NCBI GenBank assembly: GCA_032117235.1
Contig: JAULZW010000006.1
Coordinates: 2,532 to 66,531 of the forward strand
Source: Minisyncoccota bacterium
GTDB lineage: Bacteria > Patescibacteriota > Minisyncoccia > SW-4-49-11
DNA: 64,000 nucleotides
Direction of reading: 5' to 3'
Under the pieces are notes generated by a model. The model had not been told where the DNA came from, searched no databases, and saw only the letters and a program-made list of their open reading frames with translations. This document shows, piece after piece, positions 9,637 through 60,739 of the stretch; the first letter of the stretch is position 1; each line of letters begins with the position of its first letter. Made by a program: the position numbers and the translations under genes.

Positions 9637-10281
9637 ATGAATAAAAATATTATCATCATTGGATTAGGTCCTAAATTAGGATTTGCTATGGCAAAAAAGT
9701 TTGGGGAGAATGGATTTGTAGTTGGTCTTATTAGTCGTAATGAAATTATGTTAAAGGAGCGGGCTATTTTGTTGCAAGAGCAAGGAATTAGTGTTTTTTA
9801 TCATACAGCTAATGTATATGATAAGGATGAACTTGAGACAGCTATCTCGTTTTTGAAGAATGAAATGGGTATTATAGATGTTTTGTTTTATAATGCTGCA
9901 GGTATGAAAAGGAAAAACCTATTATCTGAAGAAACTGATGATCTCGTGAATGATTTTCGATTAAATGTTGCTCATGTATTTCATTCGGTACAATATCTTT
10001 TGGATGATTTACGACAAACAAAGGGAGCGGTATTATTAACGGGGGGAGGATTTTCGCTCAACCCTAATCATGAATTTGGGTCATTGTCATTGGGTAAGGC
10101 TGGACTAAGAAATTTAGCACTTCAATTGAATGAAGCCTTAAAAGAGGATGATATTTATGTAGGGACGCTCACTATTAATGGGCATATTCAGGTAGAGAGT
10201 AATCTCTATTCACCGTCTATATTAGCTAATATGTTTTGGGAGATGTATATGAGTAGAATAGATACAGAGATAAGATATTAG
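9637..10281 (+). CDS. SDR-like (short-chain dehydrogenase fold) protein
   Basis: N-terminal Rossmann motif 'IIIIGLGPKLGFAMAKKF', then 'YNAAG' and 'GKAGLRNL'. The canonical YxxxK Tyr is not obvious. The alternative start is 9628. Confidence 0.55.
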   Translation: MNKNIIIIGLGPKLGFAMAKKFGENGFVVGLISRNEIMLKERAILLQEQGISVFYHTANVYDKDELETAISFLKNEMGIIDVLFYNAAGMKRKNLLSEETDDLVNDFRLNVAHVFHSVQYLLDDLRQTKGAVLLTGGGFSLNPNHEFGSLSLGKAGLRNLALQLNEALKEDDIYVGTLTINGHIQVESNLYSPSILANMFWEMYMSRIDTEIRY

Positions 10282-10317
10282 GTTTGATATTCTGCTAAAG
10301 TTAATGATTTAGCTATA

Positions 10318-10761
10318 TTAAGTCTCTTTCGTTTTCATAGATAACATAAATAAAAGAATAGATAAAATAATAAACACATAATTCCCTATACCTCCTGGGG
10401 CGACACCTGTGAGGGTAAGGGGTTTGAAAAATCCAAGTATAAGTCTGAGACTATATTCAGTAAAGACAAACAGATACATAAGGGGGATAAGAGCTTTGTA
10501 GCGAATTGTGATGATGAGAAACACTATTCCAAGCAGTAGTTGAGAAATTCCCCATAATCCAAACATAAAAATAACCGTATTAGCACTTTCTACAGAATAG
10601 GTATCGAGTGGAATAGTGGCTATACTTTGTGCTCCACCATCAGGGGCTAATATATGAATTAGACTTCGGACTATAGTTATAAAGATGATAATATAAAAAG
10701 TATAGAGAGCAATAGGATGTCCAGTATAGGTGTTATTTATTTGTTTTGGGAAAATATGCAT
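10318..10761 (-). CDS. Hypothetical polytopic membrane protein
   Basis: 147 aa with about four hydrophobic helices and no recognisable motif. Confidence 0.4.
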   Translation of the reverse strand: MHIFPKQINNTYTGHPIALYTFYIIIFITIVRSLIHILAPDGGAQSIATIPLDTYSVESANTVIFMFGLWGISQLLLGIVFLIITIRYKALIPLMYLFVFTEYSLRLILGFFKPLTLTGVAPGGIGNYVFIILSILLFMLSMKTKET

Positions 10762-11615: not shown

Positions 11616-11817
11616 TGCCCCCCTTCGGAGGGGGTGCCTGAAAGGTAGACTGTAAGTCTGGGAAAGGGGTCGGGAAAACGGGAGTTTTCCCGTGAAGGAA
11701 GGTTGGGAAACCGTGAGGTTTCACAGAAGCAAATCCTATTTGCGACGGGGGCGGATAAAATACAAACTTAAACTCTATCCACCTCCGGCCTGACGGCCAC
11801 CTCCTCCAAAGGAGGAT
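11616..11817. repeat. Full copy (modules A+B) of a GC-rich hairpin-dense element; candidate structured ncRNA or miniature mobile element
   Basis: Consecutive perfect hairpins: CCCCCC-ttcg-GAGGGGG, GGGAAAAC-ggga-GTTTTCCC, GAAACC-gtga-GGTTTC, GCAAAT-cct-ATTTGC, GGATA..TATCC, GGCC-tgac-GGCC and CCTCC-aaa-GGAGG. Module A recurs at 12548-12618 and module B at 38051-38156. Confidence 0.5.
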
Positions 11818-12377: not shown

Positions 12378-12468
12378 GGAGAGATGGCTGAGCTGGTCGA
12401 AAGCACCACACTGCTAACGTGGCATAGGGTAAAACTTATCAAGGGTTCGAATCCCTTTCTCTCCGCCA
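12378..12468 (+). tRNA. tRNA-Ser (anticodon GCT), type II with a long variable arm and an encoded CCA
   Basis: Acceptor GGAGAGA/TCTCTCC, anticodon loop CTGCTAA, variable arm ATAGG..CTTAT, T-arm AGGG-TTCGAAT-CCCT, discriminator G, then CCA. Confidence 0.9.
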
Positions 12469-12496
12469 AAATTAAGAATAGGGATAATATCCCGAC

Positions 12497-12648
12497 CTTT
12501 AATTTATGGGAGTTAGTAAAAAGGGATTCGAATCCAGGGAAGGGGGCGGGAAACGGGAGTTTCCCGTGGAGGATGTATTGAAACCGAGTGGTTTCAAGGA
12601 GCAAATCCCATTTGCGACAGGTTCGTAATCCCTTTCTCTCCGCCAAAA
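12497..12648 (+). repeat. Degenerate tandem copy of tRNA-Ser (pseudo-tRNA) whose middle is occupied by module A of the GC-rich hairpin element. It ends in a near-exact 28-nt repeat of the tRNA-Ser 3' end.
   Basis: The upstream context and 5' segment ('taatttatgggag') echo the true tRNA ('taattatggagag'). 12620-12648 ('ggttcgtaatccctttctctccgccaaaa') repeats the true 3' end with one indel. 12548-12618 is module A. Confidence 0.5.
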
Positions 12649-12681
12649 TATAGAGGATAGGGCTATCAGTTATTTTGTAAG

Positions 12682-13443
12682 ATGAAACTTATATCATTAA
12701 ATACATGGGGTGGTCGAGCAGGGAAGGAAAATCTTCTTGAGTTTTTTAAGGCTTATAAAGATGTAGATATTTTTTGTTTACAGGAAATTTGGGCTGCTCC
12801 ATATGAAAATCTAGAATATGACTCTGTTAGTGGATTTAGTATTGATGATGATTATGCTAAATTTTATATTCAAGAAGTTGTAGATTTGATAACAACTCAT
12901 ACAGCATATTTTAGACCACAATATTCTGATTATTGGGGCCTGATGATATTAATCAAAAAAGATATAAATGTAATTTCAGAGGGGGAGCTTTTCGTCCATA
13001 AAGAAAAGGACTATATTCCTGAAGGAGATATTGGATTACATGCACGAAATATACAATTTGCGACAATTGCAACTCCGAATGGGCACAGGTCTATTATCAA
13101 TTTTCATGGATTATGGAATGGTAAAGGAAAAGGGGATAGCGAAGATAGACTATTACAATCAGATAAAATAATTGAGTTTATACAAACTTTAGCTAATCCA
13201 TATATTATAGCTTGAGATTTTAATCTATTGCCGGATACTCAGAGTATTAAAAAGTTTGAGGACTTGGGACTGAATAATCTCATCAAAGAATATAATATTA
13301 CTTCAACACGTACGAGTTTTTATACTAAGCCCGAAAAATTTGCCGATTATGTGTTTACCGATAAAGATATTACTATAAAAGACTTTAAGGTATTACCTGA
13401 TGAGGTATCTGATCATAGTGCTTTGTATTTGGAATTTGAATAA
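12682..13443 (+). pseudogene. Endonuclease/exonuclease/phosphatase (EEP) family protein interrupted by an in-frame TGA at 13213-13215
   Basis: ORFs 12682-13215 and 13228-13443 share a frame. The sequence reads 'PYIIA*DFNLLPD', so the stop sits where the EEP 'GDFN' Gly is expected. The C-terminus has 'SDHSALY', as in the EEP family. Confidence 0.6.
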
Positions 13444-13494
13444 TTTCAAACTTCTCGATTTTGCAACCAAGATAGATAGGTATATAGTTATTTA

Positions 13495-14118
13495 TTATCT
13501 CACCTCTAAAATTTCCTCCATATCAAATCGGACTTTTGGCCAGCTTTGATGATCATCTTCCGAACTGCGGTAGCCAAGTCCAATTAGGGTGACGGCGGTA
13601 TAATCTTTGAGCCCTAATATCTCGGTTACTTTCGTAGCATCAAACCCTTCCATAGGGGCGGCATCTACTTCAAGTTGAGCGGCTGTTAGTAATAGTATCC
13701 CAAGTGAAATATAGGCTTGTCTACGGCTCCAATCAAAGAATTTTTCAGGTTTAGTTTTATCTACAAATCCTTGTAACATATTGTGATATCCCTCAAGCTC
13801 AGAAATTTCTACTTTTCGTGCTTCAGCTGCTTTGCTAATAATACGATTGACATAAGGAGAATCAAGTGTATTAGGTATAGTAAGTACCAGTAAGGTAGGA
13901 GATGTCTTTATCGAATCTTGCTTGAACCCAGCTTCGAATATTTGATTACGAATTTCTGGGGATTGTATAGAGATATATTTCCATGGTTGAAAATTCATAG
14001 ATGAGGGGGATAGTCGTGCCGCCTCTATAATGGTATGCAATATATCCTCTGAGATAGCAGTAGGTAGGAATTTATCTGTGGCATAGCGCCAATTGAGGGC
14101 TTCTAATATAGATTTCAT
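13495..14118 (-). CDS. Nitroreductase-family NAD(P)H oxidoreductase
   Basis: 207 aa with 'LNWRYATDKF', 'IEAARLSPSSMNFQPW' and 'GLGYRSSEDD', a typical nitroreductase layout. Confidence 0.7.
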   Translation of the reverse strand: MKSILEALNWRYATDKFLPTAISEDILHTIIEAARLSPSSMNFQPWKYISIQSPEIRNQIFEAGFKQDSIKTSPTLLVLTIPNTLDSPYVNRIISKAAEARKVEISELEGYHNMLQGFVDKTKPEKFFDWSRRQAYISLGILLLTAAQLEVDAAPMEGFDATKVTEILGLKDYTAVTLIGLGYRSSEDDHQSWPKVRFDMEEILEVR

Positions 14119-24138: not shown

Positions 24139-26214
24139 TTAAGGAGATGAAGTTATTCTATTTTTACCACCTAGTCCTTTTAGTGCAGCCTTCAATTTGT
24201 TCTCACCAATTTCTGGCACTGATAATTCTGGGTAAGTGGCACGAGCTACAGCTGGATCTGATTGATATAAAGATAAATAGTTATTTATTTCTTTAATAAT
24301 ATTGGTTCTTATTCCTCCATATTTATTCCATGATTTTGGATCTTCTAAAGTGTCGAGTGAAGATTCATTTGCTATAATCGGAGCAAATTTCTTAATATCA
24401 AAGTTGTCTTCATATATTTCTCTTCCTGATGAATCTGTAACTTTACTTTTTGTATTAAATATAGAGTTATTTTTTGCAACCATATCTCCTGCTCCGACTA
24501 ATCCAGCTTTTGCTGCTTTAGCAGAGGGTGAGTAATTTGTATTTTTTACATCTCGTTCTGCTAATCCAGCGGCAAAATTACCAACCCCCTTATCATTTAA
24601 TATATTAGCCTGACGACTTCTAAAGCTATTTGTTGTTTGAGTACCTATAACTTTACCATTAGCATCTCGGATAAGGTTTCCAGCACTATCTTTTTGCTCA
24701 AAATTATCATTAATGAATGCATCAAGTTGCTTAGCATCAGTATCATAACCATTAGATGGGTCTGAATATTTACTATAATCACCTTGTGTAAATATTTTAT
24801 TCCATCCTTTTAATTCAGATATTCTTGTTGCTAATGCCATGGCAGTGAATTTATCTCCATCATCAAGAGCTTTCTTCATATCTTGAGCTAATTTATCAAC
24901 ATTAAATTCATCTTTGACTTCTGTAGCAGCAGCTCCTTGTAGTGTAGCAGCCATTTTTTTATAGCGTTCATTTCCTTTCTCTTCTAACTTACCTTCATTA
25001 AACAAACGAATTGCTTTTTCTTTCTCAAAATCTTCTAATTGTTGTTTTTTCCCTTCAGCTGAAAACCCTTGAAATCTTCCCACGAATCCAATCCCTTCTT
25101 TTTGTTGTTCTATCAAATCTCTTTTTTTACTTTCATATTTTTGATTGGCATTTTGCAATGCTTTAATTCCAGTTACTCCACCCACAGCTCCAGCTGTATT
25201 AGTGAGCCCACCAGCTAACTTATCAGTATTCTTAATACCACCCTGCACTAATTCTTTTCCCTTACCAAACATTTTTCCAGTACCAACTCCTCCAGCTCCG
25301 ACATAAGCTCCTAGTCCTAATGTGGCAACAGTACCAGCTACTCCCACAGCATTTTTTAGTATAGTAGGAGCAGATTGAGCAGCCTTGGTGGCTGTAGAAT
25401 TGGCCAAGAATAATAATCCTATCACTAAGACATAATTTATTAGATTACCATTATTCATCAAATTATCCCCACCAGTCGTAGCAGTATTAGCAGAAATTCC
25501 AGTGCTCATCAAAGAAAATGCTAAATATAAGAAAAACATTAAAGTTGGCCCAGTAACTAAGGCTTCTTGTAATTGTTTTTTCCAATCATCACTAATAGAT
25601 TTTAGTCCTGGTATTAAAGTAGCCATAAAAGCCAAAGGAGCTAACATTATTACAAACCACAAGGTTACTATCCTCATAGCTAGAATAAGTGCAGTCCATA
25701 ATAGTACAAATACTAAAATAGCAATTACAACAATAGTAAATATATTTAAAATAATATTCTCTGTATTAGATTCTGAACCTGATTCTGCTATTCTGGATGC
25801 AGTTCCAATAATGTTTGCCATATTAGGTCCAAAGGAATTATAAAAAGATATCATTATAATTTGGCTAATATCTATCAAGAATCCTACAATAGCTTTACTG
25901 AAATTTATAAATAAAGCTACAAATATAAAATTAGGCAACATTCTTTTAGCTGTATAATTATCTAAGGATCCAACATTAAGTACAGTTGAGATTGCAATTA
26001 ATAATAAAACTAAAGCAAAGAATAAATTAGAGAAGTTTCTAGTAATTTCCCAGCCAGCATTAACTCCTTCACTAAAGAAATTCTGATAGGACATAACATT
26101 TGTTAATAATGGGACAACAGCATTGTTTAATAACATTAAAAAAAAGTTTTTAAACATACCAACTATGTTTGCCACTAAAAATCCACCTGCTTTATCTAAA
26201 AACCAATTAACCAT
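24139..26214 (-). CDS. VirB6/TrbL-like polytopic membrane protein with a long Gly-rich hydrophilic C-terminal tail
   Basis: 691 aa with 6-7 TM helices. 'VIMLAPLAFMATLIPGLKSISDDWKKQLQEAL' fits the TrbL/VirB6 core pattern (aPl..a..l.p.t....W.kql). The tail runs 'GAGGVGTGKMFGKGKE...'. Confidence 0.5.
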   Translation of the reverse strand: MVNWFLDKAGGFLVANIVGMFKNFFLMLLNNAVVPLLTNVMSYQNFFSEGVNAGWEITRNFSNLFFALVLLLIAISTVLNVGSLDNYTAKRMLPNFIFVALFINFSKAIVGFLIDISQIIMISFYNSFGPNMANIIGTASRIAESGSESNTENIILNIFTIVVIAILVFVLLWTALILAMRIVTLWFVIMLAPLAFMATLIPGLKSISDDWKKQLQEALVTGPTLMFFLYLAFSLMSTGISANTATTGGDNLMNNGNLINYVLVIGLLFLANSTATKAAQSAPTILKNAVGVAGTVATLGLGAYVGAGGVGTGKMFGKGKELVQGGIKNTDKLAGGLTNTAGAVGGVTGIKALQNANQKYESKKRDLIEQQKEGIGFVGRFQGFSAEGKKQQLEDFEKEKAIRLFNEGKLEEKGNERYKKMAATLQGAAATEVKDEFNVDKLAQDMKKALDDGDKFTAMALATRISELKGWNKIFTQGDYSKYSDPSNGYDTDAKQLDAFINDNFEQKDSAGNLIRDANGKVIGTQTTNSFRSRQANILNDKGVGNFAAGLAERDVKNTNYSPSAKAAKAGLVGAGDMVAKNNSIFNTKSKVTDSSGREIYEDNFDIKKFAPIIANESSLDTLEDPKSWNKYGGIRTNIIKEINNYLSLYQSDPAVARATYPELSVPEIGENKLKAALKGLGGKNRITSSP

Positions 26215-37692: not shown

Positions 37693-37711
37693 GCGGAAGT
37701 GAGAGGATTCG
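37693..37711 (-). repeat. 19-nt direct repeat of the tRNA-Ser(TGA) 3' end (att-like)
   Basis: 'gcggaagtgagaggattcg' at 37693-37711 matches 37899-37917. The roughly 190-bp interval between the copies has acceptor-like pairing (GAAGTGA...TCACTTCC), like a degraded tRNA copy. Confidence 0.6.
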
Positions 37712-37899
37712 GTCACAAGTAATTTTCCTGACGGAAAATTCTCGCGACCCCGTCTCGCTGTGTTCGCCTTGTGCTTCGCACAAACTCACACTGGGCTGCG
37801 ACTTTCTCATCCCCACGGGAGCAATGCTATTGCTCTCTGTCACTTCTTCAAATATTATTTTTATCTTTTGGCATAAATACCAAAAGATAAAAATATATG

Positions 37900-40157: not shown

Positions 40158-40751
40158 ATGGATATATATAAGACTTTTTTTAAAAAAAACGCACTATTCT
40201 TGAGTATAATAACTATAGTTGGTATTAGTGCTGGTCTTGCAATTACCAGAATATTACCAGCATCTTATGATGTATCTTTAGCTATTAACATTGAAAGAAA
40301 AGTCGAGAATACAGGACAATTTTATACTTATGATGGATATTATGCCATTCAAGCCACTGAATTATTTGGTAAAAGTGTAGCTAGTTGGTTTGTTACACCA
40401 GATTTTGTAGAGGATGTTTTGAAAAATTCAGATAAGTCCAATCTAGATAAATTATCAGTCAAAGACTTTAGGAGAGTATTTACACCAGAGCAAGTTTCAG
40501 CTAATTTGGTTGAAGTTAGATTTGGAGTAGACAGTGTAGATTTAGGAAACACTTTAACAGATTCAATCTCAAGTAGTATTGTTTCATATATGCAAAGTAG
40601 TGATATTAAAGATTATAATATATTCGTTGGAACTCCAGTAACTAGAAAAGTAAATTATAACCCAATTTTATTTTCTCTAGGAGGAGCCTTTTTAGCAATT
40701 GCCATTGGTATTAGTATAGCTGCTAGTAGACAGCATTATTGGAAAAAATGA
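40158..40751 (+). CDS. Small Wzz-like (polysaccharide chain-length-determinant-like) bitopic protein; tentative
   Basis: TM helices at the N- and C-termini flank a soluble domain. It sits between two GT4 genes and ends with the window's only TGA terminator. Confidence 0.35.
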   Translation: MDIYKTFFKKNALFLSIITIVGISAGLAITRILPASYDVSLAINIERKVENTGQFYTYDGYYAIQATELFGKSVASWFVTPDFVEDVLKNSDKSNLDKLSVKDFRRVFTPEQVSANLVEVRFGVDSVDLGNTLTDSISSSIVSYMQSSDIKDYNIFVGTPVTRKVNYNPILFSLGGAFLAIAIGISIAASRQHYWKK

Positions 40752-60385: not shown

Positions 60386-60713
60386 CCAATAAGAATGGTA
60401 ATCGCGCATATCCATTTTATGGTGAGTGAGGAAAGTCTGGACACCTGTTGCTTAAAAACAATAAATGATAGTGGGTAACACCCATCCTTAAGTTTACTTA
60501 AGCGGGATAAGTATCGCAGAGACAAAACATTTGAGTATAACTCATCTAAGGTGAAAAGAGATAAACCCTATCAGGTGCAAGGCCGTGCTTTTCTTAATTG
60601 AAAAGAGTGCCGCCAAGAAAGTGCTGGTAACAGTACTTCAAGATAAATGATTACCTTAAGTATTATTGCTAGACAATATGCTTAAACAGAATCCAGCTTA
60701 TATTCTTTATTGG
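60386..60713 (+). ncRNA. rnpB: RNase P RNA (bacterial type, reduced size)
   Basis: P4 strands 'GAGGAAAGTCTGGAC' and 'ACAGAATCCAGCTTA'. P1 pairs CCAATAAGAATGG with ATTCTTTATTGG. A TATAAT -10 lies at 60371-60376. Confidence 0.8.
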
Positions 60714-60739
60714 GTACTATATATCACCAATATAATAAT

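Follow-up and report, generated by a model that had tools for sequence, protein, structure and literature searches.

The assignment of UGA to glycine (genetic code 25) is established for the Gracilibacteria and the Absconditabacteria, and in these lineages the coding density rises when TGA is read as sense (PMC10746230). Here we describe a gene of the EEP superfamily from a freshwater Patescibacteria bacterium, which is interrupted by an in-frame TGA and which lies within a stretch of 64,000 nucleotides that was analysed as a whole (hereafter the window). The likeness to code 25 is apparent, since the UGA falls at a Gly position, in a member of the Patescibacteria/CPR with a low G+C content and few TGA stops. 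However, the locus differs from code 25 in that there is a single such codon and not many, the genus has genes that end in TGA, near-identical alleles have GGA at the same place, no tRNA-Gly(UCA) occurs in the window or in the loci fetched for comparison, and the lineage is nearest to Ca. Elulimicrobium. The other described situation that comes close is the young unitary pseudogene, that is, a bacterial accessory gene closed by a nonsense mutation. The gene matches it in that one base is changed and the remainder of the ORF is undamaged; close relatives carry intact alleles, and other strains are without the gene or have broken it independently. Nothing substantive sets it apart from an ordinary young pseudogene, the one curiosity being the place of the stop, at the invariant Gly of a catalytic motif. 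We consider it very probable that a recent GGA to TGA nonsense mutation has produced a young pseudogene in an accessory cassette, and such a finding is an ordinary one.

The interrupted gene occupies positions 12682-13443 of the plus strand as a single EEP-superfamily (PF03372) gene of 253 codons, whose sole defect is the TGA at 13213-13215 (Table 1). The codons around the stop are CCA TAT ATT ATA GCT TGA GAT TTT AAT CTA TTG CCG GAT, which translate as PYIIA*DFNLLPD, or more widely as ANPYIIA*DFNLLPDTQ. A reading made from the letters of the DNA alone (hereafter the sequence-only reading) had proposed that the ORFs at 12682-13215 and 13228-13443 are one EEP gene split by this codon. This is borne out, as both are in the same frame and, once joined with a Gly at the stop, match Pfam PF03372 (Exo_endo_phos) over profile positions 2-225 of 225 (E=1.8e-21, 77.4 bits, the gathering cut-off being 24.5 bits). 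The Gly that it expected at the interrupted position is likewise found in the homologues: position 178 is Gly in 24/24 and 30/30 of them in two alignments, within an invariant G-D-F-N. Indeed, the motifs N7, Q34-E35, D179-F180-N181 and S243-D244-H245 are invariant in the family and all of them are encoded in the window; only the Gly178 codon is altered.

Table 1. Positions of the interrupted EEP gene, of its cassette slot and of the tRNA-linked elements (window coordinates unless a locus is named).
Feature	Position	Strand	Remarks
tRNA-Ser(GCT)	12378-12468	+	left anchor of the cassette slot
23-nt direct repeat AATCCCTTTCTCTCCGCCAAAAT, copy 1	12450-12472	+	3′ end of the tRNA-Ser
A-type tRNA-linked structured element	12473-12626	+	insertion relative to L019, L022 and L026; outside the EEP gene
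23-nt tRNA 3′-end repeat, copy 2	12627-12649	+	its end is the left edge of the EEP cassette
Strain-variable EEP cassette	12647-13495	+	849 bp; conspecifics have a 659-bp NUDIX cassette instead
EEP gene, very probable pseudogene	12682-13443	+	joined Pfam match; 91-99.8% identity to intact alleles
5′ ORF (predicted truncated product)	12682-13215	+	177 aa, ends at TGA; N7 and E35 kept; without D179, N181, D244 and H245
In-frame TGA in place of GGA (Gly178, GDFN motif)	13213-13215	+	G>T transversion at 13213
3′ remnant ORF	13228-13443	+	71 aa from an internal TTG; undamaged, identical to intact alleles
Convergent nitroreductase gene	13495-14118	-	right anchor of the slot; its stop codon (13495-13497) is the right edge
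B-type element, window	37694-37850	-	
B-type element, L002	2170-2325		
B-type element, L036	9806-9961		
B-type element, L031	1108-1263	-	
B-type element, L016	18601-18739	-	

A search of 5.8 billion proteins returned 3130 homologues, almost all of them 250-255 aa long and from Patescibacteria (Giovannoni-, Kerfeld-, Ryan-, Uhr- and Paceibacteria, for example); between classes, they share 60-70% identity. The AF2 model of an intact allele (P0127; pLDDT 87.1, pTM 0.88) has the EEP fold, a four-layer alpha/beta sandwich. When this model was compared with solved structures in Foldseek, EEP structures were matched at a probability of 1.00 with TM values of about 0.65-0.72 (4c1r, 3mpr and 3g6s among them), and the closest folds were those of BT3783 (a Bacteroides mannosyl-6-phosphatase), uncharacterised EEP proteins, TDP2 and nocturnin. 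With a profile as the query, GDFN aligned with the IICGDFNT of Mth212, an ExoIII homologue of solved structure, and SDH with its SDH, a weak match at the level of motifs. A PDB sequence search with the single protein gave no match, and all NCBIfam matches were under their cut-offs. The gene thus shares with the EEP superfamily (ExoIII/Mth212, TDP2, nocturnin, BT3783) the full PF03372 match, the motifs and the predicted fold, but in contrast to the characterised enzymes its family is Patescibacteria-wide, uncharacterised and without a sequence-level match to solved structures. The label of nuclease is unproven for the product, the neighbours of the predicted structure including a sugar phosphatase, TDP2 and nocturnin among others.

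When we compared the interrupted gene with its relatives, we found GGA at the Gly178 codon in all six loci L002, L020, L021, L022, L024 and L035, a comparison of orthologues that the sequence-only reading had called for. In L002, where the gene has 91% identity to that of the window, the stop site reads GCT GGA GAT. The locus L035, which covers the last 501 nt of the gene, is identical to the window at 500 of the 501 nt, and the sole difference is the G at 13213 where the window has T. In L020 and L021, 3 of 762 nt are changed relative to the window, one of them being the G at 13213. The 90% protein cluster of the gene also contains near-identical intact alleles, and the 76 codons 3′ of the TGA bear no further damage. 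Since the L035 allele differs at 13213 only and that of L020 at 3/762 nt, the TGA at 13213-13215 is derived and very young, with the intact form still in circulation. This agrees with what had been the simplest interpretation of the letters alone, a GGA to TGA change giving a fresh pseudogene.

The interrupted allele is not restricted to the window. Records of exactly the same 177-aa and 71-aa products come from NCBI, JGI 3300059473 and the Logan assembly of SRR22423862, and the contig of the latter (L001) matches the window at 100% identity over 2017 bp. The same TGA is found on a second haplotype (L019, JGI 3300043773), which has two further nucleotide differences in the gene, and whose upstream flank has 97.8% identity to the window and is without a 134-nt element present there. 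These two changes, 12808 A>T and 12816 A>T, result in N43Y and E45D; both are nonsynonymous and lie in variable columns. As intact alleles have A at both positions, they arose on the TGA background. They fit a relaxed constraint, although two substitutions are far too few to test it, and dN/dS on the TGA lineage is uninformative for the same reason, with only 2 substitutions, both nonsynonymous.

These records bear directly on the possibility that the TGA is an error of sequencing or of assembly, position 13213 being a G in reality and the gene intact. The window differs from intact alleles by a single base, as an error would, and some of the recorded TGA contigs may share the read set of the window. 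However, the same TGA occurs in contigs from different pipelines and samples (NCBI, JGI 3300059473, Logan SRR22423862) and also on the distinct L019 haplotype with its divergent flank, and position 13213 lies outside any homopolymer, where a G>T at the consensus level would be an atypical artefact. Such recurrence of the TGA, in other samples and on another haplotype, makes an error, which the sequence-only reading had kept as an alternative, very improbable.

The sequence-only reading had also drawn attention to the TGA being placed exactly at the conserved Gly. The position is correct, but its weight as evidence is small. Among the 28 single substitutions that can create a TGA in this gene (full enumeration), 7 (25%) fall on GGA codons, so that 'exactly at Gly' carries little weight. 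Since a quarter of the TGA-creating mutations in this gene would hit Gly, code 25 should not be deduced in a CPR bacterium from a UGA at a conserved Gly alone.

The stop codons of the window and of its relatives also bear on whether the UGA is decoded. All 56 window ORFs of at least 100 aa are open under code 11, with 46 ending in TAA, 8 in TAG and 2 in TGA, the last two being the EEP lesion and the codon at 40749-40751. The latter belongs to an ATGA stop/start overlap at 40748-40751, where a 197-aa ORF (40158-40751) ends in TGA and the next gene starts with the ATG at 40748 (ATG ACA ATA GGT, MTIGIDARG); an in-frame TAG lies two codons after the TGA of the upstream ORF. In the sister species L020, FolD ends in TGA at its normal C-terminus (275 vs 278 aa). 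Over the window and the loci L002, L020, L022, L026, L036 and L039, we counted about 2 genuine TGA stops in about 117 ORFs of the genus, vs 26 TAG, and both are backed by a TAA or TAG within 2-7 codons. Two loci from other low-G+C Patescibacteria, L012 and L013, have 0/23 TGA stops, or 0/19 when only ORFs of at least 150 aa are kept. In SHMT, the organism is closest among named relatives to Ca. Elulimicrobium (84%), followed by Dojkabacteria (about 57%), and Ca. Elulimicrobiota forms a separate phylum within the Patescibacteria group.

When ORFs were called again with TGA as sense, no other pair of genes merged in the 64-kb window (about 56 genes and 18,000 codons), and in about 100 kb of DNA from the same genus no TGA joined two ORFs of a conserved gene. 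The TGA in the EEP gene is thus the only one in frame inside a real gene of the window, which upholds the earlier statement that the standard code leaves the remainder of the window intact. Many in-frame TGAs at Gly positions, which according to the sequence-only reading would have marked a code-25 genome, were looked for and none besides that of the EEP gene was present in the window genes or in the same-genus DNA. Searches for a tRNA with a UCA anticodon found none in the window or in any fetched locus, and tblastn found no release-factor gene of either type in the window and L001-L038. We did not find any paper on RF2 loss or UGA recoding in other Patescibacteria in a literature search.

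If the UGA were decoded, a full-length EEP protein would be made, with Gly inserted by a code-25-like suppressor tRNA or through low-level near-cognate readthrough. The TGA does lie exactly at an invariant Gly, but chance alone puts 25% of TGA mutations on Gly codons. The frame 3′ of the stop is still perfect, but the youth of the lesion, at 1 nt from an intact allele, explains this. Hardly any ORF of the window or of the genus ends in TGA, and the TGA allele is found on two haplotypes; set against this are the TGA end of FolD in the sister species, the ATGA overlap, the lack of any other sense-like TGA in the window codons or in relatives, and the tRNA(UCA) searches. Moreover, the window is already densely coding under code 11, unlike code-25 lineages (PMC10746230), and it belongs to a lineage nearest to Ca. 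Elulimicrobium and Dojkabacteria, not to Gracilibacteria or Absconditabacteria. As for the second route, near-cognate readthrough of UGA normally inserts Trp. Readthrough would thus put a Trp at the invariant Gly. Decoding of this UGA, by either route, seems to us highly unlikely. A code-25 genome is disfavoured because there are no other in-frame TGAs, TGA is a stop in the sister species and the lineage is the wrong one; the organism would appear to use the standard code, its TGA being no sign of an altered one.

A narrower form of the same idea is that an Elulimicrobium-like lineage has nearly purged its TGA stops and that the TGA at Gly178 is tolerated as UGA is weakly or newly decoded, with Gly or by readthrough. 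Were this true, the codon would represent an early stage of UGA reassignment, near the 'unassigned-codon' stage, outside the Gracilibacteria and Absconditabacteria, and the scarcity of TGA stops would be the background on which a reassignment could start. It is a very doubtful proposition, and the slim chance that we leave to some UGA decoding is due to the striking rarity of TGA stops in the genus and also at the other low-G+C Patescibacteria loci. A TGA allele imported from a code-25 donor was considered too and rejected, because the intact standard-code allele differs by one base only. Beside the EEP gene, the odd tRNA-like stretch at 12506-12650 was searched for a suppressor tRNA with permissive ARAGORN settings. 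The one candidate was poor, its 'anticodon' gagt having 4 bases and not being UCA, and Rfam returned nothing; a suppressor tRNA at this place was therefore rejected.

Selenocysteine insertion or another programmed recoding at the UGA has a negligible probability. An in-frame UGA in a conserved enzyme is formally the signature of a selenoprotein, but the homologous residue is Gly and never Cys or Sec, and near-identical alleles simply have GGA. The stretch 3′ of the TGA folds no better than shuffled controls (z=-0.62), so that no stable hairpin follows the UGA; no SECIS or other recoding structure was found at the site, there was no Rfam match, and no tRNA-Sec occurs in the window. The recoded or readthrough site that the sequence-only reading had listed beside an error is therefore disfavoured together with it, given the single in-frame TGA, the tRNA(UCA) searches, the Gly in homologues and the folding result.

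The interrupted gene is one that the lineage can do without. Four loci with an almost identical SHMT gene (L039, L040, L042 and L043) have flanks of 99.0-99.4% identity to the window over more than 10 kb and are without the EEP gene; they carry a 659-bp NUDIX-hydrolase gene between the tRNA-Ser repeat, which ends at about 12646 in this comparison, and the nitroreductase stop (4074-4732 of L039, reverse complement). In L002-L004, the same slot is occupied by the EEP gene together with an epimerase gene. In the sister lineage L022-L025, found in four samples, the EEP gene is split into 151 and 121 aa by an additional G in a GGGG run; in L022 the affected region is 10001-10760 and the lesion corresponds to about position 13132 of the window, and an intact version (P0130) also exists. 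Since strains with 99%-identical flanks lack the gene and a sister lineage broke its own copy independently, it is a dispensable accessory gene. The gene is moreover monocistronic and convergent with the nitroreductase gene, and no polar effect of the stop is therefore expected.

The slot resembles tRNA-adjacent integration hot spots and genomic islets: a tRNA gene and then a direct repeat of its 3′ end stand immediately before the gene, and strains differ in what they carry there (EEP, NUDIX, or EEP with epimerase). In contrast to integration hot spots, the cassettes of this slot hold one or two genes and there is no integrase in it. The EEP genes of L020, L035 and L036 have 99.6, 99.8 and 98.8% identity to the window, respectively, whereas the adjacent nitroreductase genes have 75.2, 88.8 and 88.6%, and the tract of high identity between the window and L020 runs from the tRNA to about 13510-13525. 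This difference between the gene and its neighbour implies, from the pattern of identities, that the cassette was recently exchanged horizontally between species. The exchange may have taken place by homologous recombination through the conserved flanks. In distant Patescibacteria, the distance from an EEP homologue to a tRNA gene (Ala, Met, Ser or Lys) was likewise found to be about 20-170 nt, as in L005 (tRNA at 9801-9872), L009 (9896-9970), L012 (9889-9976 and 11329-11416) and L031 (1257-1330). In L012, the homologue is bracketed by a tRNA-Ser(GCT) and by a tRNA-Ser-like gene with the odd anticodon ACT. These occurrences suggest that the EEP family travels in tRNA-adjacent islets.

What is shown here is that one base has changed, that the change is derived and present in several samples, and that the gene is dispensable; the preferred reading, a recent nonsense mutation in an accessory gene, builds on this. 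On this reading, the EEP gene was intact until very recently, when a single G>T transversion at 13213 turned GGA (Gly178) into TGA. Under the standard code, ribosomes are expected to terminate at UGA-G and to release a 177-aa fragment, which would be inactive because it is without the catalytic Asp and Asn of GDFN and without the C-terminal SDH motif. The mutation would be tolerated because the gene is accessory. A two-piece enzyme made by reinitiation at the TTG at 13228 was rejected, since D179 and N181 would be missing from it. With two backgrounds carrying it, the TGA allele must to some extent have persisted or spread. One interrupted gene among about 56 is no more than would be produced by chance or by ordinary gene decay.

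The loss of function could also have been selected, if the knockout was advantageous (through the removal of a costly or toxic enzyme, for example) and the TGA allele spread for this reason, the molecular event being the same. The occurrence of the allele in two backgrounds, the independent frameshift in the sister lineage and the replacement of the EEP gene in conspecific strains could all be taken in this sense, but neutral decay of a dispensable cassette accounts for the same facts. Moreover, intact alleles are common and highly conserved across Patescibacteria, as the 3130 homologues attest, which argues for a general usefulness of the gene, and the sample of alleles is too small for a test of selection. 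We consider selected loss unlikely.

Taken alone, one more young pseudogene in a metagenome-derived genome is of little importance. For annotation, the two ORFs should be joined and the EEP gene flagged as disrupted. The surroundings of the gene are of more interest, namely the one-gene cassette slot beside a tRNA-Ser that varies between 99%-identical strains, the near-identical EEP alleles found across species, the scarcity of TGA stops, and structured elements of about 150 nt at tRNA 3′ ends that are absent from Rfam.

Two types of such elements were distinguished. The A-type element separates the tRNA-Ser(GCT) from the EEP cassette, with a copy of the 23-nt direct repeat on either side, and is present in the window and in L020. 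It contains two 8-bp hairpins and an inverted copy of the T-arm, and it matches the model of the B-type weakly (10 bits); a second copy of its core, with 82% identity, is found at 11661-11749. The B-type element is structured and about 155 nt long, and in diverse Patescibacteria it follows immediately on the 3′ side of a tRNA gene (Ser-UGA, Ser-GCU, Lys-UUU or Leu-GAG). The copies at Ser-UGA, Ser-GCU and Leu-GAG end in a repeat of the 3′ end of their own tRNA, and the Lys-UUU copy (L031) shows no evident repeat of this kind. Of the 47 pairs predicted by RNAalifold, 8 have compensatory changes. Covariation between the 5′ end and the tRNA-derived 3′ end is seen in the tRNA-Ser copies (GAAGTGA/TCACTTC vs GAGAGAA/TTCTCTC), where the two ends form an acceptor-like stem. 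The covariance model built for the B-type recovers distant copies at E=1.6e-7 and 0.013, the element has no family in Rfam, and a search of viral contigs with its core found no match. The B-type element may represent a small RNA similar to a tRNA, or else a miniature integrative element.

Elsewhere in the compared loci, the FolD of L022 (16717-17376, minus strand) is only 219 aa long, where 275-278 aa is normal, through an apparent frameshift, which is either a second lesion in this lineage or an indel error of the contig. Within the window, positions 24149-25270 could not be aligned with conspecifics that are otherwise 99% identical. They lie inside a large TrbL-like ORF (24139-26214, minus strand), itself part of a PrgI/TrbL-like (type IV secretion-like) gene cluster, and on the strength of the alignments they would constitute a hypervariable region. 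A bacterial RNase P RNA of class A was found at 60386-60717 on the plus strand (125.9 bits), and its presence, along with that of uppS, mltG, tsaD, folD, glyA and aspS, indicates that the window is chromosomal.
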